From contig OZ252279.1 in the NCBI GenBank assembly GCA_965250005.1, positions 1,470,001-1,502,000 of the forward strand: a stretch of DNA of 32,000 nt, written 5' to 3'. The notes beneath the pieces are model-generated. The model saw only the letters and a list, made by a program, of their open reading frames with translations, made no database searches and had not been told where the DNA came from. The translations under genes and the position numbers were made by a program. Every line of letters starts with the position of its first letter. The first letter of the stretch is position 1. This document shows, piece after piece, positions 4,675 to 30,057 of the stretch. This DNA is from Demequinaceae bacterium (GTDB lineage: Bacteria > Actinomycetota > Actinomycetes > Actinomycetales > Demequinaceae).

Positions 4675-4750
4675 ACCCGAACTGTCACCAGTTCCTGCAC
4701 CAGCCCCTTCGCTGTAGCCGTAGTTTTGAATGCATGGTCGATACTCGAGC

Positions 4751-7375: not shown

Positions 7376-7439
7376 GCGGGCAAGCGGTTCGGGTGCGGTT
7401 GGAGAGGTGTTTGAGGGCAGTGCGATCAGAGGGTTGAAC

Positions 7440-10400: not shown

Positions 10401-13400
10401 ACAGTCGAACTGACACGTATCAGTGACGGCACAACAGTTGAAGACCTTGCAGACCTGTCTGGCATGCTTGCCGCAACTTCGACGGTGCGCCGCGAAGTTG
10501 ATGGCCAAACGGTCACCGATACGCTCGCAACAGCCTCACACAGTGACTACACAATTGAGCGGGCTGTCGCACTCGATGTGCGTGAAGTAGACCTCAATCT
10601 TGGGGTCGGTGCAGAACTGATCGAAGTTGGTGACGCAAACAACGACGGCAACGCGGACCTACTTGCCTGGCTTGCCGACAAGTCGTTGGTTCTGTATTAC
10701 GGTGACGGCAACGGTGGCGTGACCGACGTTGACGGCACCGTTGTGTCTGCCGCATGGAGCACAACGGCAGACAAAATTATTGCACCCGGATCGTGGGATT
10801 CAACCGTCGACGATTATGTAGACCTCATCGAAGTCAAAGACGGATATTTGCGACTACATCGCGGTGCTGGCGATGGCACATGGGCGTCAACGAGCACCCA
10901 GATCGGTAGCGGTTGGGGCAGCTTCTTGGACATTTTGGTGCCAGGTGACTGGAGTGGCGACAGCAAACCTGACATCCTGCCCATTCAAACGGACAGCGAC
11001 CTTCGGTTGTATACCGGCAACGGCACCGCCACATCCCCCACAACAGTCGGCGTCATTGCCCAAATAGTTGATGAAGACTACATGCGTTTTGGCGACTTCG
11101 ACGGCGACGGCAAAACTGATGCCGCACACCACTACGACACCGACTGGCATGCATCATATTCTGGGACCGGCGACTGGATATTCCTTGGTGGCTCGCAATA
11201 TGGGGCCGATCAGGTCCGTTTCGATGGCGACTTCGACGGCAACGGCACAACCGATATGGCAATGCACACGTCGAGCGGGTGGCGTGTGCAATGGGACTCC
11301 AACAGTTCCTGGGAATACATCAACGACAGCACCATTACCGCAAATCTGTGGTTCGTGGATGTTGGCGTCAAAACTGCAGGCGACCCCACCGGTGTGGATG
11401 ACATCGTTTGGTTTACCGGAAGCAAATTTTCTGTGCGTTGGTCTGGCCAAGGAAACTGGGTAGACCTCAACACGTCCACATTGGGTTCCGACAAATCCTT
11501 TGCCGACATTGACGGCGACGGTGAAGCCGACATGATCAAACAAAACACGCTCGGCTGGCTAGTGTGGTGGTCCGGTAAAGGCCCCTACGAATACATCAAC
11601 ACTGACCTGAGTGCTGGCGACAATGTTATGTTCGGCGACTTTGATGGTGATGGCAGCGACGATTTGGTGCGCCGACGCAACGGCAACTGGGAATACAACT
11701 CTGCTTTGTTAGCTGACAGTGCCGCCGAATGGACCCACCTCATAGCCGAAGGTGGCACCAGCGGTGAAGGTGGTGTCTACGACTACGACGACTTCCATTA
11801 CGACGTTTGGGATTTTGATGGCAACGGCACATCAGATCTTGTCCGCTCCGGTGACGGCGGCTGGATGGTCCTATACGACGGCACAGGCAACTGGCAACAA
11901 ATCGCAGCCTCCCAATGGGCCCAATACGACACTTTTGTTGACGGCGGCGACTACAACGGTGACAGCATTGCAGACATTATTGCCATCTCCGCCATCGGCA
12001 ACGTCGATGTTCTCTACGGTGAAGGCGACAACGGTCCACCCGCCAACGCCCAAAAAACTGTCATAACCAACATTGGCGACGCCCAACAACTCGTCGCACC
12101 CGGAGACTGGAACGGCGACAACGTACCCGACCTACTCCTACTTGAAGCCGACGGAACACTCATGCTTCACGGCGGCACCCCCCACACCACCAGCGGTGAC
12201 GGCTCCTACTACAGCCAAACCATCCACTCCGAAACGTCATGGTCGATGGTCACCGAACCAGGACTTACCGTGCCGTGGGTGAAAACCTCAACCTCGACCA
12301 CCGCGTTTGACGGCCAAAACCTGCCCATCACATCCGAATCAACCGTGATCGAAACAGTCGACGGCATCCAAACAGCAGGCTCACCGTTCACATCCTGCAC
12401 GGCCATGGAACATTTGTGGCGTGTTGACGACGACGCCGCTACGGGAGATACCAACATCGGATGGGATGCTGTAGACGGCTGGGGTGGAGACATCTACCTG
12501 TCAGCAACATGGCGCACCCGCACACATGAAGGCGCCTGTGACGACTCGCAGAAGATCCTGACCGGTGTTTCAGAAACCTATTTTGATGGCGCCACCTGGG
12601 ATGACAACGAACCCCAAGACCTGTTAACACGAGGTTTAGTAACAACAGAAATTGCGTACCCCATCTATGAAGGCGCCACCGCTGCCGCCAAACGTGGCAA
12701 CGCCGCAATCTCCGTCGCAGAATATGATGCCCGCGGCCGTATCGCGAAAGCATGGATGCCCAACGACGTCTCCTTGAACGCCACCACCGGAGCACTAGAA
12801 ACCAACAACAGCTTCACCACATGGACATACGGTGCGTTCGCCACGTCGGGTGACCACGCAGGCTTGGCGGAATTGACGGTAGGCACCACCGTTGAGTGGG
12901 CTGAAGGTGTGCCGACAACGTATTCGACGTCGCAATGGGTGGAGCCCACGCGCGGTAGTGGGGTGAAGTCCATTGACCTCAACGAGCACTACACGCATTA
13001 CCGATTCGACCCGTTCGGCCTGCTTGAGGCGGGTTACGCGTCCACGACGTGGGATGGCGCCACGGCTCCGTGGTTGGAGTCCAGTTATGTGATTCCGACG
13101 GCGTCGTTTGAGTACGACGTGTACGCCCCTGGTGTGGGCGTGCGTTCCACACCCGTGACAGTCACCTCTGCCCAGCATGCAGGCTACGACGCGGCCGCCA
13201 ATGCCGGTGCAGGCCAATGGGTCTGCCAAGAAGCCGCCTGCTTTGTCAACCGTTCCCACATGTTCCTCGATGGATGGGGGCGTGCCGTCGAACAGCACCG
13301 TGTTGCACCAGACGGATCCGGTGGACGGCTAGTCTCCGCGACCAGGTACAACAAACTCGGGCACATCGAGTTTGTTGCCTCAACGTTCTGGAACGAAGAC

Positions 13401-16400
13401 GCCGCACAACTATCAAACGGAAAAGTCGACCCCGTCCTAGGTCAACTAGACCAGTTTGCGACCACAACGGTGGATTGGGCTGGCAGGGCCACCACACAAT
13501 CGACATGGTACCGAGACCCAACACTAGGCTTGTTGGAAACAAAAACAGAAACAACACGTATCGGCAATGTCACCGAAGTCACGGCAGCCTCCGGGGCCGT
13601 TACGGAAACCACCAACGACATTTTGGGTCGGCTCACAAAGCAGGTGCAGTTCGCTGAGGGCGGTGCAGATCCATTTACTACCGGATACGCGTACGAGACG
13701 TTGCCCGATGGCGGCAGCAAAGTCACAGTCACGGACCCAGACAATAATGACACCGTGTTTGAGTCGAACCTGAGTGGTCAACGCACAACCATGACGGATC
13801 CGAACTCAGGCCTGTCGACCTACACGTACGACCTGAACGGGCAAACCACATCGGTGGACTCTGAGGCTGGGTTGATCACGATGGTCTATGACGCACTCGG
13901 TCGCATGACAGATCGCACCACACTTGAGCCGGACGACACCACCGTGTCTTCGTCTGCGGCATGGGAGTTCGAAAACGAACTCGACGTTGCCGCCCCCACG
14001 GGTGCACTGAAATCGTCCACAGTTACCACGGTCATTGATGCCACGACCACTTTTGTGACGGTGCAAGCCACCGACACGTGGGACACGTTGGGGCGGCCCA
14101 CATCCACCACAACACATCTTCCGCAAGACACGGCTTCTACCGGTCCGGCATATGTGACGGACGCCTCCAGTTTGGGTGAACTTGCTGGAATCAATTACAC
14201 GCGCACCGTCGCCTATGACGAGTTGTCTCGTCCCACGGTGACATTGCCTGCCATTGCAGGCCTGCCGAAACAAACCGTTTTGACTCGGTTTAACCGGTTC
14301 GGAACACCAGTGACATTGGATGTGCTGGACAACCCCGGTGCGTCTCAAACGGTGACACCGATTGTGACGGGTATCGAGCTGGATGAGTTGGGTCGGTTGA
14401 CGTCGCGGTCCTATGCAAACACCGTGGACAGGTTGATTCAGTACGACGCCCAGTGGGGTGCACCGGAACGTATCGCCGCAGTGTTTGATCCCGGTACAGG
14501 TGACATCGCAATCCAAGATGACGTGTTTACACGGGACGATGTGGGCCGTGTGACGTCCATTCAAGACGATTCAACATATGAATCGGCAAGCCCACATGAA
14601 GCCCAGTGTTTCGTCTATGACGATCACAACCGGCTCGAAAATGCGTGGACTGAAGCTACAGATGATTTCACGGGCACGTGTGACGCTTTCCCGACGTTGC
14701 CGACCACTCAGACTGAGTGGGATGCGAGTGCATGGGCTGCGTCTGCTGGACCGTACGCAACCACCTGGGAGTATTCAGATTCGGGTCGGATTGAGTCCAT
14801 CACGAACCTCATCGAGGATGGCCTGGCGGGTTCCACAGAATCGGTGCAAGCCTTCGTGTACGACACAGATCCGGCTGATGCTGAACTGGGGCCCCTGGAC
14901 TTGCCGCATGCGGTCTCCGGTGTCGACAACGATGGCGACAGCACTGTCGATGACACATTCGAATACGACACCGCTGGACGTCAAACGGTTCGCACCGTCG
15001 ATGGGGTTACCTCCACGTTGACGTGGGATGTGTCATCCAACCTCGTCAAAGCCGTCGTCGATGACGGCACCAATGAGGCCACCTGGGTGTATGTGTATGA
15101 CGCATCCGGGCAGCGCGTCACAAAGATTCAGCTCGATGGATCGACCCCGATAGATGCGACCGCATATTTCGGTGAAACTGAAGTCACCGACACTGACACC
15201 AGCACTGATGGTGCATCAGACGTGACCGCGGTGCGGTATTACCAGTTTGGTGTCGCCGCCGTCGCACTCGAGCAGTCTGTTGAACACCCCACCACCCCCA
15301 CCGTTGAGTTGTTCTATTTGTTTGGTGACTTCCAAGGTTCAGCTCAGGTGATGATGTCTGATGCTAGAGACGTCAATGGTGACGCCGACCCAGCAAACGC
15401 GATGATTCTACGCAACGCCTACACCCCCTATGGGGCACAACGTTCGATAGATGTTGACGTAGACACCAACCCCGACCCAAACCTGCCTACCGAACGTGGC
15501 TGGCTATCCCAAGTTACCGACGAAGCCACCGACACGGCAGGCACGTTAGGCACCGGGCTGACCTATTTGAACGCCCGCTACTACGACCCGGTAACAGCAC
15601 GCTTCCTCACCCCAGACCCACTCATGAACCTTGCAGACCCGCGCACGTTGGACCCATACATGTATGCGGCGGACAACCCGGTCCTCTTCCAGGACGCTTC
15701 AGGCCTGTGTTACGAGTTTGCGGGATCGGAGAGGGCCGCATGCGAAGTGGCGAAGACGGCCGCGATTCGACCCGACCTTGGCGGCACCGATGGAGGCAGT
15801 TCAACGCAGCCTCCGGAAGATCTGGAGTCCGCCTGTTTCACGAACTCTTGGTTCGAAGAATGCAGACACGATACTTCTTCGGACGAATTCTACGAGGGAA
15901 TCGGATTCGGCGAGGGAGCATCAATTGCCGGGTGGGGTGCAGCCAACTTCTTTGTCGGTATCGCGAACGGGCTATTGTTTCCCATCAACGCCGGAAAATG
16001 TGGTTGGGACGCCCGAAGCCTAAACGTCGTCGACGCATATATCATCTGTGGACTGGGAGCCTCCTCCAACAACTCGTACTTCCCAGATGGCTGGTACTTC
16101 AACTCTGTAGGAGGCAACCCCGCCCTCTACGACCCATCGATGCACGTCGGGACAGATTTCGTCTACAACGCACCGCTACTTTTCATAGGTGGTGGAGTCG
16201 CCGCGGGGGGAAGAGGATTGGCGGCCACTGCAAGTGGGTCGCGTGGGGCTGCAGTTGCCGCACCTCGGGTCACATTCGGCCACGGGGCTCGGCACTTGGA
16301 AGGGACAGGACTGTCTGTCGCGGAAGTTGAATCCGCGATCCTGCCTCGGGTCTCCGCAGCGGTGACGGAGTCCACGACTGGGACCGCGGGCGGCTCGTTC

Positions 16401-16496
16401 TGGGGTCGTGTCGTAGTCGATGGAACTACAATTGAATACCGTGCGTATCCACTCGCTGACGGCACGATCAACGTTGGGACCTACTATGTGCCTTGA
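7440..16496 (+). CDS. Rhs/YD-repeat polymorphic toxin, TcB/TcC-like fused architecture with Sec-type signal peptide
   Basis: ATG at 7440 gives MGRVRLGLVAVFVAAALVVSGTPAWT (the ORF track opens at 7368). Then, in order: a PEPS linker; an SpvB/TcB-N-like motif FTYSLPIEVPPAQAGAAPNVSLSYSS..GEGW; FG-GAP DxDxDG blades; many YD repeats (YDARGRI, YTYDLNGQ, YDALGRM, YDELSRP, YDTAGRQ, YDASGQR); the Rhs core YLNARYYDPVTARFLTPDP..DPYMYAADNPVLFQDASGL; and an unrelated 262-aa tail. Confidence 0.95.
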   Translation: MGRVRLGLVAVFVAAALVVSGTPAWTVDLSPSPDSTATPSVEPSPEPSATPNPEPSPEPSPEPSPEPSVEPSASVNDFVWSDPDPVDSVEGNPGGVPRDVGLGRLPSFGAEQSSGVEHRVFDFDVMSGTDFEVAVAEGTSGVDGSVVVAVGAVPLDDVIRRVYGSSGLYFPGELRGRPDLVAASRPSADVGEHVIVEQRPGADASIPGAAFTLSVDVGGLNEDARWVDVAVNMSLVEHLFGANYVDRLQFVLLPECALTSRKNRDCFAGLPLESSRNGLTGVTTIAAPANARTLADVDGFNSRPVSVDVIHSGDLAAEFAASQGLKFAGTGGGTIIVAVSGASGQAGDFSATDLAAQGTWGVSEQSGAFTYSLPIEVPPAQAGAAPNVSLSYSSAGADAKTESTNGQTSVLGEGWANPTNFIERLYLPCNADEYGTNLLDKCWHSPYTSVPGEAAYTVSLNGATYDLIWDGGNRYRTSTEIGWRVTRHWGANNGDGGEADSDDEGEYFLVQVPDGSRYYFGYGHVGVSGSPTNSVATVPVFGDDTGEPRCGTDANDECVQGYRWMLDISVDASNNASTYTYTRDTNHYALKGDVNRITEYTAAIRLDDIKYGLVWGGLDVGVGTQQADAKVQYVYVERCVQAANYLGTLATTPAVNCPDMDEDNAHFYPDVPIDLLCDAATGSNPCAATHNSPVFFTTERLDQITTSVRDWADVDTNSDWVPVATTQLLAGYPMTGDGSARNLWLDGVYTKAWGEFGNVDDDLQTYVIKFDPIQLNNRVDFIPGDDDRRAVDRLRIERVRTEFGGHIEVEYARDIDGVGDADPDDPYGLTVCEADGFVNEAAIDTYYDTVFANGWDENSQLCSPSSNADDAPTFHKYMVTEVRLVDAVAPVPVDADEDGDFEEATSSDFFDYLTTVNRYDYIGEPAWAYADSIMSERGQGGQTWNVFRGYEIVESWVGENLTDYAVTRNQYYRGTSGGYLENGTLASTVELTRISDGTTVEDLADLSGMLAATSTVRREVDGQTVTDTLATASHSDYTIERAVALDVREVDLNLGVGAELIEVGDANNDGNADLLAWLADKSLVLYYGDGNGGVTDVDGTVVSAAWSTTADKIIAPGSWDSTVDDYVDLIEVKDGYLRLHRGAGDGTWASTSTQIGSGWGSFLDILVPGDWSGDSKPDILPIQTDSDLRLYTGNGTATSPTTVGVIAQIVDEDYMRFGDFDGDGKTDAAHHYDTDWHASYSGTGDWIFLGGSQYGADQVRFDGDFDGNGTTDMAMHTSSGWRVQWDSNSSWEYINDSTITANLWFVDVGVKTAGDPTGVDDIVWFTGSKFSVRWSGQGNWVDLNTSTLGSDKSFADIDGDGEADMIKQNTLGWLVWWSGKGPYEYINTDLSAGDNVMFGDFDGDGSDDLVRRRNGNWEYNSALLADSAAEWTHLIAEGGTSGEGGVYDYDDFHYDVWDFDGNGTSDLVRSGDGGWMVLYDGTGNWQQIAASQWAQYDTFVDGGDYNGDSIADIIAISAIGNVDVLYGEGDNGPPANAQKTVITNIGDAQQLVAPGDWNGDNVPDLLLLEADGTLMLHGGTPHTTSGDGSYYSQTIHSETSWSMVTEPGLTVPWVKTSTSTTAFDGQNLPITSESTVIETVDGIQTAGSPFTSCTAMEHLWRVDDDAATGDTNIGWDAVDGWGGDIYLSATWRTRTHEGACDDSQKILTGVSETYFDGATWDDNEPQDLLTRGLVTTEIAYPIYEGATAAAKRGNAAISVAEYDARGRIAKAWMPNDVSLNATTGALETNNSFTTWTYGAFATSGDHAGLAELTVGTTVEWAEGVPTTYSTSQWVEPTRGSGVKSIDLNEHYTHYRFDPFGLLEAGYASTTWDGATAPWLESSYVIPTASFEYDVYAPGVGVRSTPVTVTSAQHAGYDAAANAGAGQWVCQEAACFVNRSHMFLDGWGRAVEQHRVAPDGSGGRLVSATRYNKLGHIEFVASTFWNEDAAQLSNGKVDPVLGQLDQFATTTVDWAGRATTQSTWYRDPTLGLLETKTETTRIGNVTEVTAASGAVTETTNDILGRLTKQVQFAEGGADPFTTGYAYETLPDGGSKVTVTDPDNNDTVFESNLSGQRTTMTDPNSGLSTYTYDLNGQTTSVDSEAGLITMVYDALGRMTDRTTLEPDDTTVSSSAAWEFENELDVAAPTGALKSSTVTTVIDATTTFVTVQATDTWDTLGRPTSTTTHLPQDTASTGPAYVTDASSLGELAGINYTRTVAYDELSRPTVTLPAIAGLPKQTVLTRFNRFGTPVTLDVLDNPGASQTVTPIVTGIELDELGRLTSRSYANTVDRLIQYDAQWGAPERIAAVFDPGTGDIAIQDDVFTRDDVGRVTSIQDDSTYESASPHEAQCFVYDDHNRLENAWTEATDDFTGTCDAFPTLPTTQTEWDASAWAASAGPYATTWEYSDSGRIESITNLIEDGLAGSTESVQAFVYDTDPADAELGPLDLPHAVSGVDNDGDSTVDDTFEYDTAGRQTVRTVDGVTSTLTWDVSSNLVKAVVDDGTNEATWVYVYDASGQRVTKIQLDGSTPIDATAYFGETEVTDTDTSTDGASDVTAVRYYQFGVAAVALEQSVEHPTTPTVELFYLFGDFQGSAQVMMSDARDVNGDADPANAMILRNAYTPYGAQRSIDVDVDTNPDPNLPTERGWLSQVTDEATDTAGTLGTGLTYLNARYYDPVTARFLTPDPLMNLADPRTLDPYMYAADNPVLFQDASGLCYEFAGSERAACEVAKTAAIRPDLGGTDGGSSTQPPEDLESACFTNSWFEECRHDTSSDEFYEGIGFGEGASIAGWGAANFFVGIANGLLFPINAGKCGWDARSLNVVDAYIICGLGASSNNSYFPDGWYFNSVGGNPALYDPSMHVGTDFVYNAPLLFIGGGVAAGGRGLAATASGSRGAAVAAPRVTFGHGARHLEGTGLSVAEVESAILPRVSAAVTESTTGTAGGSFWGRVVVDGTTIEYRAYPLADGTINVGTYYVP
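7560..7655 (+). repeat. 12-bp periodic coding repeat (eight units, consensus CCR GAA CCG AGY) encoding a (S/T)PEP linker
   Basis: Read directly: gtcgagccaagc ccggaaccgagt gcaacaccaaac ccagaaccgagc ccagaaccgagt ccggaaccgagc ccagaaccgagt gtggagccgagt. Lies just after the signal peptide. Confidence 0.85.
10620..12180 (+). repeat. FG-GAP/VCBS-type beta-propeller repeat region inside the Rhs protein (about ten blades)
   Basis: Recurring calcium-loop-like motifs: VGDANNDGNADL, PGDWSGDSKPD, FGDFDGDGKTD, FDGDFDGNGTTD, FADIDGDGEADM, FGDFDGDGSDD, WDFDGNGTSD, GDYNGDSIADI, PGDWNGDNVPD. Trp-rich strands lie between them (GWRVQW, FSVRWSG, GWLVWWSG, GWMVLYDG). Confidence 0.7.
15708..16496 (+). other. C-terminal toxin tip of the main Rhs protein (begins right after the ..QDASGL core boundary)
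   Basis: Similarity to the orphan copies is high up to GL at 15702-15707 and is lost after it. The tail has a Cys/Gly-rich linker, and the final ~90 aa are RVTFGHGARHLEGTGLSVAEVESAI..GRVVVDGTTIEYRAYPLADGTINVGTYYVP. I cannot assign a family. Confidence 0.75.
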
Positions 16497-16854
16497 CCGC
16501 AACGCTGGAGGACTTCGTGCCCCGACGAACGACGAGCGAGAACTGATCGCCCGGCTACTCGCCGCCGACTTCGCGGGGGCTCCTGAACTTCGACTTCAAC
16601 TGAGCACAACTCTCGTAGACTCCATCGACGACGACGGGAGCCTCGGTCTCAACCCGGAAGGCGCATCGCTAGCTGAAGTAGATCATCGGATACCCGTCGA
16701 GGCGACTTACCCCGATGCGGACGGCATGACCGTTCATGTCTTGATCCACGTGATTGACGGGCTCCTCGATGAGCTTGAGGTTTACCGAGAGGACTCCCTC
16801 CCCGTGTTGAGACCCGCAGCCGGTGCTCTCGATCTGGCGGTGGACCCGCGGTAA
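16486..16854 (+). CDS. Candidate cognate immunity protein of the main Rhs tip
   Basis: The ATG at 16486 overlaps the rhs stop by 11 bp (the ORF track opens at 16420, inside rhs). 122 aa, acidic: ..NDERELIARLLAADFAGAPELRLQL..DDDGSLGL..VHVLIHVIDGLLDELEVYREDS. From memory it resembles small DUF6984-type proteins found after toxin genes. Unverified. Confidence 0.6.
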   Translation: MCLDRNAGGLRAPTNDERELIARLLAADFAGAPELRLQLSTTLVDSIDDDGSLGLNPEGASLAEVDHRIPVEATYPDADGMTVHVLIHVIDGLLDELEVYREDSLPVLRPAAGALDLAVDPR

Positions 16855-17504
16855 GAGTGACGGTGCTCCTGGTCGCGATCCCCGCACGGGTTCACGGTCT
16901 TTGAGTCGAACATTGCCGGGCAGCGTACCAAGTTGACGGACCCAAACTCAGGCCTGTCGACCTACACGTATGACTTGAACGGTCAGACTTTGTCTGTGGA
17001 TTCCGAGACGGGTCTCATCACGATGGCCTACGACGCACTCGGTCGCATGACAGATCGCACCACACTTGAGCCGGACGACACCACCGTGTCTTCGTCTGCG
17101 GCATGGGAATTCGAAAACGAACTCGACGTTGCCGCCCCCACGGGTGCACTGAAATCGTCCACAGCTACCACGGTCATTGATGCCACGACCACTTTTGTGA
17201 CTGTGCAAGCCACCGACACGTGGGACACGTTGGGGCGGCCCACAGCCACCACAACCCATCTTCCGCAAGACACGGTTTCTACAGATCCGGCATATGTGAC
17301 GGACGCGTCCAGTTTGGGTGAACTTGCTGGCACCGACTACACGCGCACCGTCACCTACGACGAGCTGTCTCGTCCCACGGTGACACTGCCTGCCATTGCA
17401 GGCCTGCCAGCACAAACCATTGTGAACGGTTACAACCGGTTCGGAACACCAGTGACTGAACCGCCCTGGGTTTTGTTCCGATCTCTATTTGAGAGGATCG
17501 GATC

Positions 17505-18730: not shown

Positions 18731-20988
18731 GAACGAAACCCAGGGCGGTTCAGACATTGGACGTGTTGAATAACCCAGGTGCGTCGCAAACGGTGACACC
18801 TATTGTGACCGGTGTTGGTTTGGATGAGTTGGGTCGGTTGACGTCCCGGTCCTATGCAAACACCGTGGACAGGTTGATTCAGTACGACGCCCAGTGGGGT
18901 GCACCGGAACGTATCGCAGCAGTGTTTGATCCGGGTACAGGTGACATTGCCATCCAAGATGATGTGTTTACACGGGACGATGTTGGCCGCGTGACGTCGA
19001 TTCAAGACGATTCAACATATGAATCAGCGAACCCGCATGAGGCCCAATGTTTCGTTTATGACGGTCACAACCGGCTCGCAAATGCGTGGACTGAAGCTAC
19101 AGATGGATTCACGGGCACGTGTGACGCTTTCCCGACGTTGCCGACCACTCAGACTGAGTGGGATGCGAGTGCATGGGCTGCGTCTGCTGGACCGTACGCA
19201 ACCACCTGGGAGTATTCAGATTCGGGTCGGATTGAGTCCATCACGAACCTCATCGAGGATGGCTTGTCAGGTTCCACAGAATCGGTGCAAGCCTTCGAAT
19301 ATGACTCCGACGGTAATGGCACAGAATTGTCGGCAAACGATTTGCCGCATGCGGTTTCCGGTGTCGACAACGATGGCGACAGCACTGTCGATGACACGTT
19401 CGAATATGACACGGCTGGACGTCAAACGGTTCGCACTGTCGACGGGGTTACGTCCACGTTGACGTGGGATGTGTCATCCAACCTTGTCAAAGCCGTCGTC
19501 GATGACGGCACCAATGAAACCACCTGGGTGTATGTGTATGACGCATCCGGGCAGCGCGTCACAAAGATTCAACTCGATGGGTCAACTCCGGTAGATGCGA
19601 CTGCATATTTTGGTGAAACTGAAGTCACCGATACAGACACCAATAATGACGGTGCATCAGACGTGACTGCTGTCCGGTACTACGCATTTGGTGGTGCCAC
19701 GGTTGCGATCGAGCAGTCTGTTGAACACCCCACCAGCCCCACCGTGGACCTGTTCTACCTGTTTGGTGACTTCCAAGGCTCCGCACAGGTGATGATGTCT
19801 GATGCGAGAGACGTCAACGGTGACGCCGACCCAGCAAACGCAACAATCCTGCGCAACGCCTACACCCCCTATGGGGCACAGCGTTCGATAGATGTTGACG
19901 TCGACACCAACCCCGACCCAAACTTGCCTACCGAACGTGGCTGGCTATCCCAAGTCAGGGACGAAGCCACCGACACGGCAGGCACGTTAGGCACAGGGCT
20001 GACATATTTGAACGCCCGCTACTACGACCCGGTAACAGCACGCTTCCTATCCCCAGACCCACTCATGAACCCCCAGGACCCGCGCACGTTGGATCCGTAC
20101 ATGTATGCGGCCAACAACCCGATCCTCTTCCAGGACGCTACAGGCTTGTGCTACGGGCTGATAGGTCAGGCAATGGCAACATGCCAACAAGACAAAACGG
20201 CCGCATGGACGACGTTCACCAAAGCACAAGTGCCGACCACACCAAAGTACAAGGACCTTCCGGAGTCGGTGCAACAGAGCATGTGTGCCAGCGGTGAGGT
20301 TACCGGACACGCATGCAACGCTGACGTCACCAAGGATGATTTTGACCAGTCGATCGGATTCACCGAGGGTCTAGGAATCGTCGGAAACGGGTTCACGAAC
20401 CTTGGGGCAGGAGTTGTTGATGGAGTGACGGGCACCCTGGACCTTGCGGTAGATGTTGTCGCAAACCTTGGTCGACCGTGGTGCACTGGCGACGTTCTCG
20501 GTATTACGAGCGGGACCTGGGGGTGCGTTGATGTAACGGACATAGCCAAAATAGGGGTGGTCGGAGACCCGGACGTATACGGGCTCGTTCACGCATACGG
20601 CACCGTTTTGGGTTCGACGGCAACTCTTGCTGGCGGCGGCGCCGCGATTGGCGCGGGCAGGGCTGGTAGCGCGACCATCGCTACGGAAGTAAATCTTCCG
20701 CGATCCCTCACGCCCTTCTGGCGGACTTCCCCAACTACGTCGGCCGCTTTGCGCGCAAATCCAATTATTGGCGAGGCGGGTAAGTTTGCGCCATTTGCGC
20801 GCGGAGGGTGGCTCAACAACAACAACTATCTGCGAACGGGTTGGAGTTGGATGGGGACCAATGCCTCTGGCACTAACGTTTTTCGTACGGCGATTGGAAA
20901 CAACTCGATAGGGAAAATCCACCTGAATTGGTTCACGTAGACACCTGGGCATCAGATACTGTGATTGCCGACCACGAAAGGGCACCGG

Positions 20989-21405
20989 ATGGGCGCAAAA
21001 AGCCAATACTTCGATCTCACAATCGACGAGATATCTCGCCATTTTGAGGTGCGCGAGCTTGAGCCAAGCCCGGATGGGCCGCTGCGTGCAGTGTCTGTGC
21101 GCAATGCTGGCGATGGCGGAAGGACGTGCGAGGTCAACACGCCGGACGGATACGAAGCGCATGTTTATGCCGAGGGACTCCATTTTGACGATACGTTGCG
21201 AGGCGCAGCGTCAACACATGTCGTCCGTCTTGTGCGCGGGTACATGGAGAATGGCGCGACCGAGAGCACTCGCCGCCGCTGGTTTGGTGTCGTTCGCGTC
21301 GTCAGCGTGGATACGCCGGGTGGGGCAACCTACAACCTCGAGGAGTGGGGCCCCTTTTCTCGCGTCCGCGTGACCGATGCCCGGCGGCCGAGCGAGGGCG
21401 ATTGA
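20989..21405 (+). CDS. Candidate immunity protein for the O1 tip
   Basis: The ATG at 20989 follows AAAGGG (the ORF track opens at a TTG at 20965). 138 aa, 48 bp after the O1 stop, same strand. No recognisable family (MGAKSQYFDLTIDEISRHFEVRELEPSPDG..). Confidence 0.5.
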   Translation: MGAKSQYFDLTIDEISRHFEVRELEPSPDGPLRAVSVRNAGDGGRTCEVNTPDGYEAHVYAEGLHFDDTLRGAASTHVVRLVRGYMENGATESTRRRWFGVVRVVSVDTPGGATYNLEEWGPFSRVRVTDARRPSEGD

Positions 21406-21547
21406 GCCCGCGGACCCTTCTGCTGGACTATTCGACCAACGGATCAGTGGATCCGGTGCAATAATTCAAGTACGACTTTGACGGCGACATTTTCGGAATT
21501 GCGGCCACCGGAGAAGTGTATCGCCCCGGGTTTGGTGGAGGCTTTCA

Positions 21548-21889
21548 TTGCAGGGAAGGATGAGGACTATGGGAGCACCGAGGAAGTATTCGCCGGAACT
21601 TAGGGAGCGGGCGACACGGTTGGCGCTTGATGCGAGACGGGACCCGGCGACGAGCCGGGGGTCGATGGCGAGGATTGCTGACCAGTTGGGGATCCATCGG
21701 GAGTCGTTGCGGACGTGGGTGAGGCGCGCGGAGGTGGATGGGGGGCATCGTCCGGGGACCACGACCGATGATGCGTCGAGGATCGCGGTGTTGGAGCGTG
21801 AGGTTCGAGAGTTACGTCGAGCGAATGCGATCTTGAAGAGTGCTTCGGCTTTCTTCGCGGCGGAGCTCGACCGCCCACCGACACGATGA
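21548..21889 (+). CDS. IS3-family transposase OrfA
   Basis: ..GAPRKYSPELRERATRLAL..IHRESLRTWVRR..VLEREVRELRRANAILKSASAFFAAELD. Identical to the protein encoded at 28015-28356 (minus strand). Confidence 0.88.
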   Translation: MQGRMRTMGAPRKYSPELRERATRLALDARRDPATSRGSMARIADQLGIHRESLRTWVRRAEVDGGHRPGTTTDDASRIAVLEREVRELRRANAILKSASAFFAAELDRPPTR

Positions 21890-22803
21890 TCACCTACATT
21901 GACGAGAACAAGGATGTCTTCGGGGTCGAGCCGATCTGTGCACAGTTGCCGATCGCCCCAGCGACGTACTATGCGGCCCGGTCGCGGCCGCCGTCGGTCA
22001 GAGCCGTCCGGGACGCGGGTCTTCTCGTCTTGATCCGTGAAATCCATGCCGAGAACTACGGTGTGTATGGGGTACGGAAAGTCCATGGTGAACTGGTTCG
22101 GCGAGGTCACCGGGTTGCTCGGTGCACCGTAGAACGTCTCATGCGTCGGAAGGGTTTGCGAGGTATTGCCCGGGTGAAGTCTCCTCGCACGACAATCCCT
22201 GGGGGCGAAACGGAACGTCCCTTGGACCTCGTGGATCGCCAGTTCAGGGCCGAACGTCCTGACCAGTTGTGGGTCGCGGACATCACCTACATTCGCACCT
22301 TCAGTGGCTGGGCTTACGCAGCGTTCGTGATCGATGTGTGCTCCCGACGGGTCGTCGGCTGGCAACTGTCGACGTCGCTACGCACCGACCTGGCTTTGGA
22401 TGCCTTAGAGATGGGGTTGTGGTCGCGGCATCGTGACGGGCGAGACGTGACTGCTCTGATTCATCACAGTGACAGGGGCGTTCAATATCGAGCTATCCGC
22501 TACACGCAACGCCTCTGCGAGGCGGGTGTCGTCGCTTCCGTCGGTTCCCGCGGCGACTCCTACGACAACGCCCTCGCGGAAGCCTTCAACTCGCTATTCA
22601 AAGCCGAGCTGGTCCGAAACCGGGGGCCCTGGAGATCCATCACCGACCTCGAGATCGCGGTCGTCGAATATATCGACTGGTTCAACCACCGACGCCTCCA
22701 CGGCGAGATTGGACACGTCCCACCAGTCGAATACGAGCAAGCCCACTACGCTTCACAGAACAACCCCGCGCCGAACCCGGAGCGGGCATTCACGAGTCTC
22801 TAA
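21886..22803 (+). CDS. IS3-family transposase OrfB (DDE)
   Basis: 305 aa with DDE contexts WVADITYI, HHSDRGVQY and YDNALAEAFN. I see two differences from the copy at 27101-28018 (HAENYG vs HAKNYG; RRKGLRG vs RREGLRG). Confidence 0.9.
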   Translation: MITYIDENKDVFGVEPICAQLPIAPATYYAARSRPPSVRAVRDAGLLVLIREIHAENYGVYGVRKVHGELVRRGHRVARCTVERLMRRKGLRGIARVKSPRTTIPGGETERPLDLVDRQFRAERPDQLWVADITYIRTFSGWAYAAFVIDVCSRRVVGWQLSTSLRTDLALDALEMGLWSRHRDGRDVTALIHHSDRGVQYRAIRYTQRLCEAGVVASVGSRGDSYDNALAEAFNSLFKAELVRNRGPWRSITDLEIAVVEYIDWFNHRRLHGEIGHVPPVEYEQAHYASQNNPAPNPERAFTSL

Positions 22804-22821
22804 CAAACCCGGGGCGATACA

Positions 22822-23590
22822 CCTGCAATCTTGGTGCGCCACGCAGGCATGCTGGGAGCAGTCTCGCCCCGATTCGCAGCGACAAATTGCGTGGGATGCG
22901 CTCATGGCATCTCCAAAGAACAAGGCGACCCTCGTGGCCGGGCAGGGCAACGGCATCGTAAGGGGTGTTTGGGGGGCGGTGACATATGCTCCGAGTAAGG
23001 CGTTCGAGGGCCTCGCATGTTTTTTCATGTCTGGCCCGAATGGGTGCCGCGAGTACCAAAAGAACGTGGCGCAAGTGCAACGGGACGAAGCAAGTGAGCT
23101 GGCTACTAATTGGTGGGGCAGCACCCGATCGGCAGCTAGCGTGGCGTCGGGCTCGAAGAGCCTCGACGACCACTGGGCGGATACGTTGCCGTGGGTACGC
23201 GAGTACACTTACGGTCCTGGACTTGACGCGTTTGACAGGCAGGACTTCTTCACAGTGGGCACGGAACTTGGCAAGGGCGAAGTACTTGTTGCAAGTATCG
23301 CCTTCGGAGTTAGGAAACTGCCATCATTGCGAAGCTCAAGTTCGACTCGCGCGCTGTCAGTGTCGGACCAACGTGGCGTGGCATCGTTGCAGCGTAGAAT
23401 GCAGGAGCATCAAATCAAGTTGAGAGAGTACGTTGCCGACCCTAGGTCGTTCGACAATACTGGACGCCTCGCCGGAGCCCAGACCGCAGCAATTGAAGAA
23501 CTCATCATCGCTGGACGCATTCGTACTTTGGAACACGATATTCGAGTCTTCCAAACACAGATCGACGACATCCTTGGAGCAGGGCAATGA
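22822..23590 (+). pseudogene. Orphan toxin tip O2, cut off from any rhs core by IS copy A
   Basis: The frame is open from the IS junction. It reads (G)LQSWCATQACWEQ.., the same position and style as GLCYEFAGSERAACE and GLCYGLIGQAMATCQ in the other copies. About 256 aa, ending ..HQIKLREYVADPRSFDNTGRLAGAQTAAIEELIIAGRIRTLEHDIRVFQTQIDDILGAGQ. The upstream part of ORF 22469-23590 is only an alternate frame of the transposase gene. Confidence 0.7.
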
Positions 23591-23886
23591 CAGACCAAAT
23601 TAGAATCAGTATCGAACTTCTGGAGCGCGTCTACCCAATTCTTATCAGTCACCTGCGGGAGATCGAAGGAGAAGAGGTCAGTCTGGAAGATGATTACTTC
23701 TGGTCGATTCCTCGAGACCAAATTGGTGCCGTCGAAAGCTCCCCGACCGACCTCAACATAGGTCAAATCTCGGAATGTCTGGAGTGGCTATCAGGAATCG
23801 AGGAAAACTCTGAGGGTGCGCTGACGTATCACCTAGTTTGGCTGGCGGATGTGCTCCGGGCCATCGGCTATGCGGTTGTCAAATGA
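23587..23886 (+). CDS. Candidate immunity protein for the O2 tip
   Basis: 99 aa, acidic. Its start overlaps the O2 stop (ATGA at 23587-23590) and follows GGAGCAGGG. Noticeably AT-richer than its surroundings: I count 25 G/C in its first 60 nt. Confidence 0.6.
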   Translation: MTDQIRISIELLERVYPILISHLREIEGEEVSLEDDYFWSIPRDQIGAVESSPTDLNIGQISECLEWLSGIEENSEGALTYHLVWLADVLRAIGYAVVK

Positions 23887-23958
23887 GACGGTGCGGGCTC
23901 GTGCGCGGCTACGAATCAAGCGGTGGGCGCTTGCGATTTCGTGACTGACGCAAACGTC

Positions 23959-26059
23959 GTGGGGTGCACCGGAACGTATTGCAGCAGTGTTTGATCCCGG
24001 TTCGGGTGACGTTGCGATCCAAGATGATGTGTTTACACGGGATGATGTTGGCCGCGTGACGTCGATTCAAGACGATTCAACATATGAATCGGCAAACCCA
24101 CATGAAGCCCAATGTTTCGTCTATGACGGCCACAACCGGCTCGCAAACGCCTGGACTGAAGCAACAGATGGATTCACGGGCACGTGTGACGCTTTCCCGT
24201 CGTTGCCGACCACTCAGACTGAGTGGGATGCGAGTGCATGGGCTGCGTCTGCTGGCCCGTACGCAACCACTTGGGACTATTCGGATTCGGGTCGGATTGA
24301 GTCCATCACGAACCTCATCGAGGATGGCTTGTCAGGTTCCACAGAATCGGTGCAGGCCTTCGAATATGACTCCGACGGTAATGGCACAGAATTGTCGGTA
24401 AACGATTTGCCGCATGCGGTTTCCGGTGTCGACAACGATGGCGACAGCACTGTCGATGACACGTTCGAATATGACACCGCTGGCCGTCAAACGGTTCGCA
24501 CTGTCGACGGGGTTACGTCCACGTTGACGTGGGATGTGTCATCCAACCTTGTCAAAGCCGTCGTCGATGACGGCACCAATGAAACCACCTGGGTGTATGT
24601 GTATGATGCATCCGGGCAGCGGATCACAAAGATTCAACTCGATGGGTCAACTCCGGTAGATGCGACCGCATATTTTGGGACTACCGAAGTCACCGACACC
24701 GATACAAGTGCTGATGGTGCTTCAGACGTGACTGCTGTCCGGTACTACGCATTTGGTGGTGCCACGGTCGCCCTCGAGCAGTCGACTGAACACCCCACCA
24801 GCCCCACCGTGGACCTGTTCTACCTGTTTGGTGACTTCCAAGGCTCCGCACAGGTGATGATGTCTGATGCTCGAGACGTCAACGGTGACGCCGACCCAGC
24901 AAACGCAACAATCCTGCGCAACGCCTACACCCCCTATGGGGCACAGCGTTCGATAGATGTTGACGTCGACACCAACCCCGACCCAAACCTGCCCACCGAA
25001 CGTGGCTGGCTATCCCAAATCACCGACGAAGCAACCGACACCGCAGGTACCCTCGGCACTGGGCTGACATATTTGAACGCCCGCTACTATGACCCCGTAA
25101 CGGCACGCTTCCTATCACCAGACCCACTCATGAACCCCCAGGACCCGCGCACGTTGGATCCGTACATGTATGCGGCCAACAACCCGATCCTCTTCCAGGA
25201 CGCTACAGGCTTGTGCTACGGGCTGATAGGTCAGGCAATGGCAACATGCCAACAAGACAAAACGGCCGCATGGACGACGTTCACCAAAGCACAAGTGCCG
25301 ACCACACCAAAGTACAAGGACCTCCCGGAGTCGGCGCAACAGAGCATGTGTGCGAACGGTGAGGTCACCGGACACGCATGCAACGCTGATGTTACCTCGG
25401 ACGATTTTGATCAGTCGATTGGTTTTTCTGAGGGCGCAGCAATCGTCGGAAACGGGTTCGCGAACCTTGGCGCAGGAGTTGTTGATGGAGTGACGGGCAC
25501 CCTGGACCTTGGGGTAGATATCGTCGCGAACCTTGGCCGACCATGGTGCACCGGCGACGTCTTGGGCATCACCAACGGTACATGGGGGTGCGTTGACGTA
25601 ACGGACATCGCCAAAATTGGCGTCATTGGCGACCCAGGTGTATACGGGTTTGTCCACGCATACGGCACCGTTTTGGGTTCGACGGCAACTCTCGCTGGCG
25701 GCGGAGCCGCATTCGGCGCGGCCAGAGCGGGCATAACGGGAGCGACAGCGACCACAGTAGGCGGCTCCTCGTCGATAGTCTCCGCAGCGGCCGCCGGACG
25801 GGGTATGTACTCGCTTGGAAGTGCGACACAGGCGGCAACTCACAGAGCAGGGGCTGCTTGGGTCGGAGCTGGGGCGACTTGGAGCTCCAGCGGGCGCGCG
25901 CTCGTGGCCGCGAATCGATTGCGGCAGTACAGGCCGCCTAATTGGAAAGACAACTGGGGACAGTGGCAGGCGAATTTCGAATCTCGGGGGCTTCCAACGG
26001 GCCCCTGGGTGAATAATGGCCACATGACCGTTACAAATATTCCGCCGGTGTTGCCATGA
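23959..26059 (+). pseudogene. Orphan rhs 3' fragment O3 with a third alternative toxin tip
   Basis: Colinear with the main gene from about 14453 onward (..WGAPERIAAVFDPGSGDVAIQDDVFTRDDVGRVTSIQDD.. through ..DPYMYAANNPILFQDATGL). The tail starts at 25214. It shares its first ~165 aa with the O1 tail, then diverges. No signal peptide or N-terminal domains. Confidence 0.88.
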
Positions 26060-26406
26060 GAAGCGAACTTCGAGCCTTCGAGTTCTCGCTTTCGGAAAGC
26101 GAGGTACGCGAACTCGAGGGCAGTGATCGCGTGTACGCGCCCGCGCGAATATACGTGGGTCAGCATGGTGGTGTAGGTGAGGAATCCTTCGACTTCATCG
26201 TTTGTACACCCCTAGGGCTAGCTCAACAGCTTGAAGCTGAGGACGTAGTGGATGGTCGTCACCACTTCGTTGTGGCGCGCTTTGAAGAGAACATGTTCGT
26301 CGAATGGATCCGAACGAAGGTCGCAGGCTGCGAAGGTCCGGACTGGAGTGCGGTCGCCCTCAAGCTCTCGCGTTTAGGAATGTGGGAGTATGAGGACTAC
26401 CATTAG
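26056..26406 (+). CDS. Candidate immunity protein for the O3 tip, Imm8-like
   Basis: 116 aa. Its start overlaps the O3 stop (ATGA at 26056-26059). ..ESFDFIVCTPLGLAQQL..GRHHFVVARFEENMFVEWI..LSRLGMWEYEDY matches my memory of the Imm8 polymorphic-toxin immunity family. Needs HMM confirmation. Confidence 0.6.
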   Translation: MRSELRAFEFSLSESEVRELEGSDRVYAPARIYVGQHGGVGEESFDFIVCTPLGLAQQLEAEDVVDGRHHFVVARFEENMFVEWIRTKVAGCEGPDWSAVALKLSRLGMWEYEDYH

Positions 26407-27082: not shown

Positions 27083-27100
27083 TGTATCGCCCCGGGTTTG

Positions 27101-28018
27101 TTAGAGACTCGTGAATGCCCGCTCCGGGTTCGGCGCGGGGTTGTTCTGTGAAGCGTAGTGGGCTTGCTCGTATTCGACTGGTGGGACGTGTCCAATCTCG
27201 CCGTGGAGGCGTCGGTGGTTGAACCAGTCGATATATTCGACGACCGCGATCTCGAGGTCGGTGATGGATCTCCAGGGTCCCCGGTTTCGGACCAGTTCGG
27301 CTTTGAATAGCGAGTTGAAGGCTTCCGCGAGGGCGTTGTCGTAGGAGTCGCCGCGGGAACCGACGGAAGCGACGACGCCGGCCTCGCAGAGGCGTTGCGT
27401 GTAGCGGATAGCTCGATATTGAACGCCCCTGTCACTGTGATGAATCAGAGCAGTCACGTCTCGCCCGTCACGATGCCGCGACCACAATCCCATTTCCAGG
27501 GCATCCAGGGCCAGGTCGGTGCGTAGCGACGTAGACAGTTGCCAGCCGACGACCCGTCGGGAGCACACATCGATCACGAACGCCGCGTAGGCCCAGCCAC
27601 TGAAGGTGCGAATGTACGTGATGTCCGCGACCCACAACTGGTCAGGACGTTCGGCCCTGAATTGGCGATCCACGAGGTCCAAGGGACGTTCCGTTTCGCC
27701 CCCAGGGATCGTCGTGCGAGGAGACTTCACCCGGGCAATACCTCGCAAACCCTCCCGACGCATGAGACGTTCTACGGTGCACCGAGCAACCCGGTGACCT
27801 CGCCGAACCAGTTCGCCATGGACTTTCCGTACCCCATAGACACCGTAGTTCTTGGCATGGATTTCACGGATCAAGACGAGAAGACCCGCGTCCCGGACGG
27901 CTCTGACCGACGGCGGCCGCGACCGGGCCGCATAGTACGTCGCTGGGGCGATCGGCAACTGTGCGCAGATCGGCTCGACCCCGAAGACATCCTTGTTCTC
28001 GTCAATGTAGGTGATCAT
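27101..28018 (-). CDS. IS3-family transposase OrfB (DDE)
   Basis: 305 aa, near identical to the protein encoded at 21886-22803. Confidence 0.9.
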   Translation of the reverse strand: MITYIDENKDVFGVEPICAQLPIAPATYYAARSRPPSVRAVRDAGLLVLIREIHAKNYGVYGVRKVHGELVRRGHRVARCTVERLMRREGLRGIARVKSPRTTIPGGETERPLDLVDRQFRAERPDQLWVADITYIRTFSGWAYAAFVIDVCSRRVVGWQLSTSLRTDLALDALEMGLWSRHRDGRDVTALIHHSDRGVQYRAIRYTQRLCEAGVVASVGSRGDSYDNALAEAFNSLFKAELVRNRGPWRSITDLEIAVVEYIDWFNHRRLHGEIGHVPPVEYEQAHYASQNNPAPNPERAFTSL

Positions 28019-28356
28019 CGTGTCGGTGGGCGGTCGAGCTCCGCCGCGAAGAAAGCCGAAGCACTCTTCAAGATCGCATTCGCTCGACGTAGCTCTCGAA
28101 CCTCACGCTCCAACACCGCGATCCTCGACGCATCATCGGTCGTGGTCCCCGGACGATGCCCCCCATCCACCTCCGCGCGCCTCACCCACGTCCGCAACGA
28201 CTCCCGATGGATCCCCAACTGGTCAGCGATCCTCGCCATCGATCCCCGGCTCGTCGCCGGGTCCCGTCTCGCATCAAGCGCCAACCGTGTCGCCCGCTCC
28301 CTAAGTTCCGGCGAATACTTCCTCGGTGCTCCCATAGTCCTCATCCTTCCCTGCAA
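28015..28356 (-). CDS. IS3-family transposase OrfA
   Basis: 113 aa, identical to the protein encoded at 21548-21889. Confidence 0.88.
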   Translation of the reverse strand: MQGRMRTMGAPRKYSPELRERATRLALDARRDPATSRGSMARIADQLGIHRESLRTWVRRAEVDGGHRPGTTTDDASRIAVLEREVRELRRANAILKSASAFFAAELDRPPTR

Positions 28357-28387
28357 TGAAAGCCTCCGCCAAACCCGGGGCGATACA

Positions 28388-28449
28388 CAGTGTTTGATCC
28401 CGGTACAGGTGACGTTGCCATCCAGGATGACGTGTTTACACGTGACGAT
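28388..28449 (+). pseudogene. 62-bp rhs fragment O5 trapped between two IS elements
   Basis: cagtgtttgatcccggtacaggtgacgttgccatccaggatgacgtgtttacacgtgacgat encodes VFDPGTGDVAIQDDVFTRDD and corresponds to main-gene 14479-14540. Confidence 0.85.
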
Positions 28450-28779: not shown

Positions 28780-28849
28780 GGGGCTGGTGCAGGGATAGGT
28801 GACAACTGACTTCTGGGACCTGGGAGGGTCTTGGTGGAAGGATGTTGTT

Positions 28850-29149
28850 ATGCCTAAAGTTTTTCCTGAGGAGTTTCGCCGTGACGTGGTTGCGGTTGCC
28901 CGGCGCCGTGAGGCGTCTCAGAAGCAGATTGCCGAGGATTTCGGGATCTCGCATGCGACGTTGTCGAATTGGTTGCGTCAAGCCAACATCGAGGACGGTG
29001 ACAAACCTGGTGTGAGCCGTGAGCGAGCCGAACAGGTGCGGGAGTTGCGTCGGCGTAATCGGTTGCTCGAGCAAGAGAACGAGGTTTTGCGGCGTGCGGC
29101 CGCTTACTTGTCGCAGGCCAATCTCAAACTCGGTGGCCACCCAAAATGA
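28850..29149 (+). CDS. IS3-family transposase OrfA (copy 2 of type a)
   Basis: Identical to the protein encoded at 3503-3802. Confidence 0.85.
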   Translation: MPKVFPEEFRRDVVAVARRREASQKQIAEDFGISHATLSNWLRQANIEDGDKPGVSRERAEQVRELRRRNRLLEQENEVLRRAAAYLSQANLKLGGHPK

Positions 29150-30021
29150 TCTACCCGCTCGTCCGCGAGCTGGCCGTCGACGGTGTTCCCGTCGCGGTGA
29201 CGTGTCGGGTGCTGAAGATTGCTCGCCAGCCGTACTACCGGTGGCGAAGCGAACCAGTTACGGCATTGGACTGGGTGCAAGCGCATCGCATGAACGCGCT
29301 CATTGACGCGCACCGTGACGACCCAGAGTTCGGCTACCGGTTCCTCGCGGACGAGGCCGTGGTAGCCGGATGGCCGATGGTGCGCAGGACCGCATGGTCC
29401 TTGGCGTCGCAGGCGGGTTTGGTGTCAACGACACAGCGTCGCAAGAGAGGCAAGGCAGGCAAACCCGGTCCACCCGTGTTCGATGACCTCGTGCAACGTG
29501 TCTTCACCGCCCAGAGCCCAAATCAGGTGTGGCTGACGGACATCACGGAGCACCCCACCAGTGAAGGCAAACTCTACCTGTGCGCCATCAAGGACCTGTA
29601 CTCGAACCGCATCGTCGGCTACTCACTCAGTGACCGAATGCAAGCCCAGTTGGCTGTGAACGCCCTGGCCAACGCCGTCGCGTCCCGCGGCGACGTCACT
29701 GGATGCATCCTGCACGCCGATAGGGGATCTCAATTTCGTTCCCGCAAAATGGGTCACGCACTGAACCGTCACGGCATGGTCGGCTCCATGGGTCGAGTAG
29801 GTGCCGCCGGCGACAACGCCGCAATGGAATCCTTCTTCAGCCTGCTCCAAAAAAACGTCCTGAACCGGCAACGCTGGGACACCCGCCAGGAACTCCGCAT
29901 CGCGATCATCACCTGGATCGAACGCACCTACCACCGCCGCCGCCGACAAGACCGACTCGGACGCTTGACCCCCATCGAATACGAGACCATCATGAACACA
30001 CAAATGGCCCTCGCGGCCTAA
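29146..30021 (+). CDS. IS3-family transposase OrfB (copy 2 of type a)
   Basis: 291 aa, identical to the protein encoded at 3799-4674. Confidence 0.9.
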   Translation: MIYPLVRELAVDGVPVAVTCRVLKIARQPYYRWRSEPVTALDWVQAHRMNALIDAHRDDPEFGYRFLADEAVVAGWPMVRRTAWSLASQAGLVSTTQRRKRGKAGKPGPPVFDDLVQRVFTAQSPNQVWLTDITEHPTSEGKLYLCAIKDLYSNRIVGYSLSDRMQAQLAVNALANAVASRGDVTGCILHADRGSQFRSRKMGHALNRHGMVGSMGRVGAAGDNAAMESFFSLLQKNVLNRQRWDTRQELRIAIITWIERTYHRRRRQDRLGRLTPIEYETIMNTQMALAA

Positions 30022-30057
30022 ACCCGAACTGTCACCAGTTCCTGCACCAGCCCCGAA

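Follow-up and report, generated by a model that had tools for sequence, protein, structure and literature searches.

The principle that toxin cargo can be built from conserved and exchangeable parts is already known from pre-toxin domains, bipartite C-terminal regions and orphan cassettes. Pre-toxin (PT) domains, such as PT-TG (PF14449), PT-VENN and PT-HINT, lie between a delivery scaffold and a hypervariable toxin and precede many toxin families (Zhang et al. 2012, PMC3482391; PMC13483458). The CdiA C-terminal region (CdiA-CT) is bipartite, with an entry domain that is made of helical hairpins, needs a disulfide (Cys55–Cys65 in EC3006) for translocation and is activated by exact N-terminal cleavage (PMC9424206). 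Orphan rhs-CT and cdiA-CT cassettes are tandem promoter-less 3′ fragments that carry their own immunity genes and allow the tip to be swapped through shared homology (Poole et al. 2011, PMC3150448). Here we analyse a 32,000-nucleotide stretch of the genome of a Demequinaceae bacterium (contig OZ252279.1, positions 1,470,001 to 1,502,000), hereafter the window, in which the gene of a Sec-exported Rhs/YD cocoon protein is followed by an array of orphan 3′ fragments, O1, O2 and O3. What is new in it is an uncurated, lineage-restricted domain, hereafter the module, that stands between the Rhs self-cleavage motif and the toxin.

As a conserved domain N-terminal to many unrelated toxins, the module belongs to the pre-toxin class in its generic sense, and it likewise sits between delivery scaffold and hypervariable toxin. 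No sequence relationship to the described PT domains was found (PF14449 hidden Markov model; hhalign with PT-TG examples), and the module differs from them in lying after the Rhs self-cleavage site, so that it travels with the toxin, and in having been found only behind Rhs cores and only in one bacterial family. Its likeness to CdiA-CT lies in a constant half that stands at a precise proteolytic site and is joined to an exchangeable toxin half, in a close Cys pair (8–14 residues apart here), and in the fact that different toxins can share the constant half, which gives homology for orphan cassettes. The two differ in setting, a type V secretion system CdiA of diderms as opposed to a Sec-exported Rhs cocoon of a monoderm, with no sequence similarity detected, and in that entry function has been shown for CdiA-CT, whereas the module is known from sequence. 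The expressed protein also resembles the TcB–TcC cocoon, with its SpvB-N region, beta-propeller, RHS shell, C-terminal autoproteolysis and enclosed hypervariable cargo. The hypervariable region of TcC is described as the toxin itself, without a conserved pre-toxin domain. Unlike TcB–TcC, the locus has no TcA partner, and its context of immunity genes and orphans is antibacterial. For classical orphans, the homology arm reportedly consists of core sequence, of Rhs or CdiA, and ends at the DPxGL or VENN boundary; by comparison, the present array and two related ones have a second, inner arm inside the tip, and some orphans keep only that inner arm.

The C-terminal fragment released from these Rhs proteins is probably made of separable units, with a conserved and selected pre-toxin domain in front of many unrelated toxins. 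A preliminary description of this DNA had held that O1 and O3 share a post-cleavage segment and differ only in their toxin ends. Codon-by-codon comparison, sliding global alignment and self-blastn of the window, which all agree, bear this out: 166–170 residues of the two tips are shared and are 91–92% identical as protein. The parts of the two orphans, in window positions, are as follows.

18753–20148, + strand: O1 orphan Rhs core, 3′ part past the insertion of an IS3 insertion sequence (IS), ending ..NPILFQDATGL (self-blastn; translation)
20149–20268, + strand: O1 post-cleavage leader (CYGLIGQAMATCQQDKTAAWTTFTK..), 99% identical to that of O3 (synonymous divergence, dS, 0.04)
20338–20670, + strand: O1 pre-toxin domain core, ~110 residues (profile A3, E 1.5e-39, G000:C1:1490338-1490670)
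20671–20940, + strand: O1 linker and warhead, ~90 residues, ending ..KIHLNWFT (unrelated to O3 from ~20668; no Pfam match)
20965–21405, + strand: O1 immunity candidate, by position as the small open reading frame (ORF) directly 3′ of the tip; no family
23959–25213, + strand: O3 orphan Rhs core, 3′ part, ending ..ATGL (self-blastn; TIGR03696 Rhs_assc_core)
25214–25333, + strand: O3 post-cleavage leader (codon-by-codon comparison with O1)
25403–25729, + strand: O3 pre-toxin domain core (profile A3, E 7.3e-38, G000:C1:1495403-1495729)
25730–25786, + strand: O3 low-complexity Gly/Ala/Thr/Ser linker, after the module end and before the part homologous to the G085 toxin
25787–26059, + strand: O3 warhead, ~85 residues (..RLRQYRPPNWK..NNGHMTVTNI..; homology to a small protein of G085)
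26056–26406, + strand: O3 immunity protein Imm8, with an ATGA overlap with the toxin stop (Pfam PF15586, 1.4e-21)

The O1 and O3 tail sequences quoted in the preliminary description are correct on translation. The Rhs_assc_core match of O3 (TIGR03696, 3.2e-14, model positions 28–76 of 76) ends at residue 409, the L of ATGL, and the shared segment begins at C410; from the conserved motif alone we infer self-cleavage after GL, releasing the tip. The downstream immunity candidates of O1 and O3 are mutually unrelated.

By self-blastn, the expressed gene matches the 5′ part of O1 at 91.4% identity (13792–14314 against 16934–17456), the 3′ part of O1 at 90.6% (14312–15714 against 18753–20155) and O3 at 88.6% (14453–15714 against 23959–25220), and its homology to both orphans stops at 15714/20155/25220, 6 nucleotides beyond the GL|C boundary. 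O1 18894–20660 and O3 23959–25725 match at 93.0% over 1769 nucleotides, with no indels and an offset of 5065 nucleotides, and the break between the orphans lies 505 nucleotides 3′ of the point where both part from the expressed gene. Since main-gene homology ends 6 nucleotides past GL|C, the sharing between O1 and O3 is a separate inner tier, and the array has two nested homology boundaries. Identity between O1 and O3 per 60 nucleotides is 78–95% from 20269 to ~20665 and reaches the random level (15/60) from ~20668/25733, a sharp break within about 10 nucleotides. The sharp break that had been placed at 20645/25710 therefore stands as such, but its position moves ~20 nucleotides further 3′, because similarity continues through ..AGGGAA[I/F]GA[G/A]RAG. 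Gradual divergence, which had been named beforehand as the pattern that would speak against a bipartite cargo, is not seen at this break.

Within the shared part, divergence is stepped, not uniform. O1 and O3 are 100% identical across the cleavage motif ..NPILFQDATGL and the first ~110 nucleotides of the tip (20089–20258), including the last 60 nucleotides of the core (20089–20148). By the Nei–Gojobori method, applied to O1 against O3, the Rhs core has a dS of 0.18 and a ratio of non-synonymous to synonymous divergence (dN/dS) of 0.11; the leader, the first 120 nucleotides of the tip (20149–20268), has a dS of 0.04 with zero non-synonymous changes, leaving dN/dS undefined; and the module (20269–20658) has a dS of 0.55 and a dN/dS of 0.12, indicating purifying selection. 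A further boundary, absent from the preliminary description, is marked by the step at ~20269, and the 32–40-residue leader is a separate unit, which takes the number of tiers above two. With a dS of 0.55 as opposed to 0.18, the module is older than the surrounding core; the core has probably been homogenised by conversion. The 180-nucleotide patch that holds the cleavage motif and leader (20089–20268 against 25154–25333) is 99–100% identical between flanks with a dS of 0.18 (core) and 0.55 (module), and looks like a recent gene-conversion tract.

The domain core, as defined by a ten-sequence alignment (A3), comprises ~105 residues and contains, in order, a predicted Gly-rich helix (..SIAGHGVVNFGSGVVN..), a Cys pair, a (v)PDIPxIPvxGDPxLY loop, SQxSG and a second hydrophobic Gly-rich stretch ending in GGxGAGG. 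The Cys...Cys pair, spaced by 8–14 residues, is invariant in A3, and the invariant columns of the family alignment are G, G, C, C, I, I, GD, Y and G. Some version of the module is present in 4/4 complete tips of the genome (O1, O3, the main gene and a second Rhs gene), each time with a different tail. The main tip does carry a diverged counterpart of the O1/O3 segment, as the preliminary description had noted (34% identity, residues 1–98, E 1e-7); its match to profile A3 is marginal (E 0.008), and it is 42% identical to the second Rhs tip over 117 residues (E 3e-24). Recurrence in relatives is at the family level, with ~25–37% identity. Shorter variants without the Cys pair (..GLLNFGGGALNG..IPSVGIAGDYxTQKY..) lie behind Rhs cores at L018 (G031), L020 (G036) and L019/L023 (G015), with further unrelated tails.

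When all tips, tails and relatives were scanned against Pfam and NCBIfam, no model matched the module or any of the three warheads (O1, O3 and main). Among the PDB sequences, a set that includes 6VEK according to PMC9424206, neither the O1 tip, the O3 tip nor profile A3 had a match at E ≤ 1. Identity with PT-TG (PF14449) was ruled out: no tip gave a match at E ≤ 1, a whole-genome scan at E ≤ 10 matched only an unrelated locus with 15 bits, and when the module profile was compared by hhalign with PT-TG examples, two from actinobacteria, the probability was 0.08%. That weak, sub-threshold match lies outside the window (G000:C1:1679712-1679825, L010) in a 940-residue open frame that may encode a further polymorphic toxin, of another kind. 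We regard the module as a real, selected and uncatalogued protein family and not as a leftover.

Behind the module, the 23 tips that bear it carry 20 unrelated tail groups (last 110 residues, all-against-all BLASTP, E < 1e-4), so that at the family level the shared module does stand before other C-terminal domains, as had been asked of it. Two of these tails are Pfam-confirmed toxins, an AHH nuclease (2.4e-16) and a papain-fold glutamine deamidase (Gln_amidase, 1.1e-9), and a further one is ADP-ribosyl-cyclase-like, with a weak, sub-threshold match. The last 85 residues of O3 (tip residues 192–276) are 43% identical over 87 residues (E 2e-20) to the C-terminus of a 245-residue frame from another genus (G085). 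This frame (L029:1051-2716, G085:C130) has a signal-peptide-like hydrophobic segment and the O3-type warhead end, with no Rhs part and no module; it is followed, with an ATGA overlap, by an Imm8 homolog 38% identical to the O3 partner, and then by a second small signal-peptide ORF. The G085 locus looks like a Sec-exported toxin/immunity locus independent of Rhs, and the O3 warhead with Imm8 is an autonomous unit. The sharp break, the many tails behind the module and the autonomous O3 warhead together support the bipartite, swappable cargo that the preliminary description had envisaged.

Imm8 is reported mainly with Ntox7 and Tox-EHHH toxins (PMC3482391); the O3 warhead matched neither of these models. 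For the O1 warhead, no credible homolog turned up among the 78 family genomes; a G015 tip has a tail that seemed to resemble it, but BLASTP did not support this. The O1 immunity candidate retrieved only itself from 5.8e9 clusters. O2 and the database protein P0010 share a different pre-toxin segment of ~120 residues (G.V..A.TWAP..C..C..WW..DHW..YTYGP) and have unrelated tails. P0010 carries the 32-residue leader of O1/O3 in front of this other segment, and modularity therefore has at least three levels: leader, module and warhead.

Two other arrays contain orphans that are nested in the same manner. On an ENA contig (L027), orphan 1 consists of core and module, and orphans 2 and 3 (P0013 and the AHH-bearing P0006) begin in the linker or just past the cleavage site and match orphan 1 at 84–87% DNA identity only across the module region, after which they diverge. 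The expressed Rhs tip of that contig (L027:2-2005) has no module, carrying a long helical linker and a GFWGNIGAGITGY.. segment; the three module-bearing orphans are therefore not installable there through module homology. In the second array, from a metagenome-assembled genome (MAG; L011/L024), a stretch of ~1.4 kb across the module is common to the main tip and two orphans. A third orphan starts within the module (profile position 40) and is 98% identical to the main gene, and a fourth fragment retains only 167 nucleotides of the post-module linker. Orphans that start inside the tip are usable only through tip homology, and they are thus direct sequence evidence for a second recombination tier. 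The shared stretch extends 80–157 residues beyond GG.GAGG in both arrays, and GGGAA is for this reason not tied to the junction: its coding stretch, earlier put forward as a second crossover point, is a domain junction in O1 and O3 and not a demonstrated crossover site or hotspot. Homologous exchange would occur anywhere within the shared module.

Profile A3 matches 9 of 78 genomes of the window's own family, in all three genera, and none of the ~370 genomes sampled across 20 further families of the order. An exhaustive HMMER search returned 8 proteins among 1.84e9 representatives, which is a lower bound, as the representatives are clustered at 50% identity and O1 and O3 themselves are not listed. 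Each of the seven long frames tested has TIGR03696 Rhs_assc_core 51–163 residues before the module, and the module is therefore always part of the fragment released by self-cleavage. The profile built from the tips matched four short proteins only, and of the module alignments used to search for related loci, the broad one has no conserved stretch of 7–10 columns, and the narrower one found a single MAG locus. The O3 tip retrieved only itself from the 5.8e9 clusters, a search limited to proteins of about 380–1200 residues in which full-length Rhs proteins were not candidates, and a Joint Genome Institute (JGI) metagenome scan with the O3 module yielded no relative.

The arrangement suggested by these comparisons is that a fragment cut off after ..GL would run from a short Cys-x10-Cys leader through the ~105-residue pre-toxin domain and a low-complexity linker to a small polymorphic toxin, with its immunity gene alongside. 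Cassettes keeping all or part of the domain would recombine behind any tip of the same module type and leave the Rhs core untouched, the domain acting as an inner homology arm because it is common to several tips. As to what the domain does, we tentatively favour the possibility that it is the delivery half of the cargo. Several features would speak for a role in entry or delivery: the module travels with every toxin, its start is close to an N-terminus made by precise proteolysis, it conserves two closely spaced cysteines within an exported protein, it has two Gly-rich, moderately hydrophobic predicted helices, and the AHH nuclease and glutamine deamidase found behind it are expected to act inside the target cell. 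A more specific version, which equates the module, in Gram-positive bacteria, with the cytoplasm-entry domain of CdiA-CT, is conceivable by analogy but doubtful. The module would be an autonomous, disulfide-braced helical element which, once the cargo is freed at the surface of a neighbour, could take any attached toxin across the monoderm membrane with no TcA-like channel, and it would set which target protein or lipid is exploited.

Several results weigh against this picture. No exchange event was observed directly; O1 and O3 are silent and O1 is IS-disrupted. AlphaFold2 gave a mean predicted local distance difference test score (pLDDT) of 35.9 for the whole O3 tip (11-row alignment) and 36.2 for the module alone (10 rows), and values of ~36 leave the helices and hairpins weakly indicated. 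The maximum 19-residue Kyte–Doolittle mean in the Gly-rich segments, 1.2–1.65, is marginal for membrane insertion, and weak members of the module family in three genomes have no Cys pair. The close form of the O1/O3 module (>90% identical) was not found outside the genome in the 5.8e9 clusters or the JGI metagenome scan. Rarity is partly a database effect, because clustering at 50% identity hides tips behind similar Rhs cores. Finally, the module is not needed for the action of the O3-type toxin, because the O3 warhead occurs without it in a Sec-exported protein, and it may serve the Rhs cocoon instead of entry.

Next most likely after delivery is adaptation to the cocoon (packing, retention, release) or a processing site. 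The former, although on balance unlikely, would have the module fit the shell, keep the cargo unfolded, anchored or packed, or trigger its exit, and be conserved to fit the shell of this lineage. It would explain why a single bacterial family yielded the module, always downstream of Rhs_assc_core, in contrast to PT-TG, which occurs behind many delivery domains (PMC13483458); the use of the O3 warhead without the module on a plain Sec-exported carrier also agrees with it, and a segment unable to fold alone would be compatible with the low AlphaFold confidence. Yet in L027 the main Rhs protein combines a similar core with a module-free tip, and O2 and P0010 use the other segment behind the same kind of core, so the shell does not require the module, and paired cysteines suggest a folded, oxidised extracellular element. 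Less likely again is a spacer and protease substrate that frees the toxin, a role proposed earlier for PT-TG and other pre-toxin domains (PMC3482391; PMC13483458): the flexible Gly/Ala/Ser/Thr linker after the module and the low predicted order would suit such a passive part, but ~105 residues with about ten invariant positions, a Cys pair and a dN/dS of 0.12 amount to more constraint than a spacer needs, and cleavage is already supplied by the Rhs core.

We consider it very improbable that the tails are accessory and that the membrane-active toxin is the module, in the manner of a glycine-zipper pore former or an ionophore. Its Gly-rich, moderately hydrophobic helices would fit, and pore-forming Rhs and ionophoric CdiA C-terminal toxins are described (PMC10684867; PMC11630599); against this, bona fide toxin domains are among the tails, hydropathy is below the usual transmembrane threshold, the immunity partners of O1 and O3 are unrelated, and Imm8 and DUF6984 match no membrane-protein family. 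A pore-forming role is unlikely because module-bearing tips share no immunity gene. Scarcely credible, finally, is the absence of any functional module, with O1 and O3 going back to the recent duplication of a single orphan and a later, chance exchange of the 3′ end. The two copies do lie 5 kb apart in an IS-riddled array, and the close module form is unique to the genome, but the module, with a dS of 0.55, predates the flanking core, with 0.18, and is under selective constraint, and homologous modules with other tails in other genera already contradict this reading.

The genome, from an Actinomycetota species, consists of one 2.0-Mb contig and has a second full-length Rhs gene ~400 kb from the locus in the window. 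The expressed Rhs/YD cocoon protein (7368–16496, + strand, 3042 residues) is Sec-exported, with a signal peptide, FG-GAP and RHS repeats and a weak SpvB-N match, and the array 3′ of its gene is made of promoter-less 3′ fragments riddled with IS3. The remaining parts of the locus are these.

7368–15707, + strand: Rhs/YD cocoon part up to the self-cleavage motif ..NPVLFQDASGL (translation; Pfam FG-GAP_3 1.8e-14, weak SpvB and RHS_repeat; orphan homology ends at 15714)
15708–16496, + strand: main tip, with the diverged module (about 15879–16211) and then its own ~80-residue tail (HGARH..GTYYVP)
16420–16854, + strand: main-tip immunity candidate, DUF6984 (Pfam PF22480, 2e-11)
22822–23590, + strand: O2 tip remnant after IS3, with the different pre-toxin segment (32% identity over 121 residues to P0010, E 1e-17)

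One IS3 copy (21516–22821) severs O2, and an inverted copy lies at 27083–28388 (self-blastn). Upstream, a gene at 5357–7375 encodes a 672-residue protein with a DNRLRE domain (NF033679, 3.2e-15), and its stop overlaps the start region of the Rhs gene. Two 100%-identical direct copies of a 1275-nucleotide IS (3433–4707 and 28780–30054) flank the whole Rhs locus and orphan array, in the manner of a composite transposon.

To our knowledge, it is not known how Sec-exported Gram-positive Rhs toxins get their cargo into a neighbour, given that they have neither a type VI secretion system nor a TcA channel; the obvious candidate for the entry step is a domain that is conserved, selected and Rhs-specific and that accompanies the toxin. 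Natural controls are at hand in the array and its relatives: O1 and O3 join one domain to different warheads, G085 has the O3-type warhead without that domain, and O2 and P0010 have a second module type behind the same kind of core. In annotating genomes of this lineage, the domain can serve as a marker by which to find orphan cassettes and toxin tails that lack annotation, and orphan fragments without Rhs core homology are not necessarily dead ends. If the domain is indeed an entry domain like that of CdiA-CT, nested orphan arrays would let a cell swap warheads while keeping a proven entry route.

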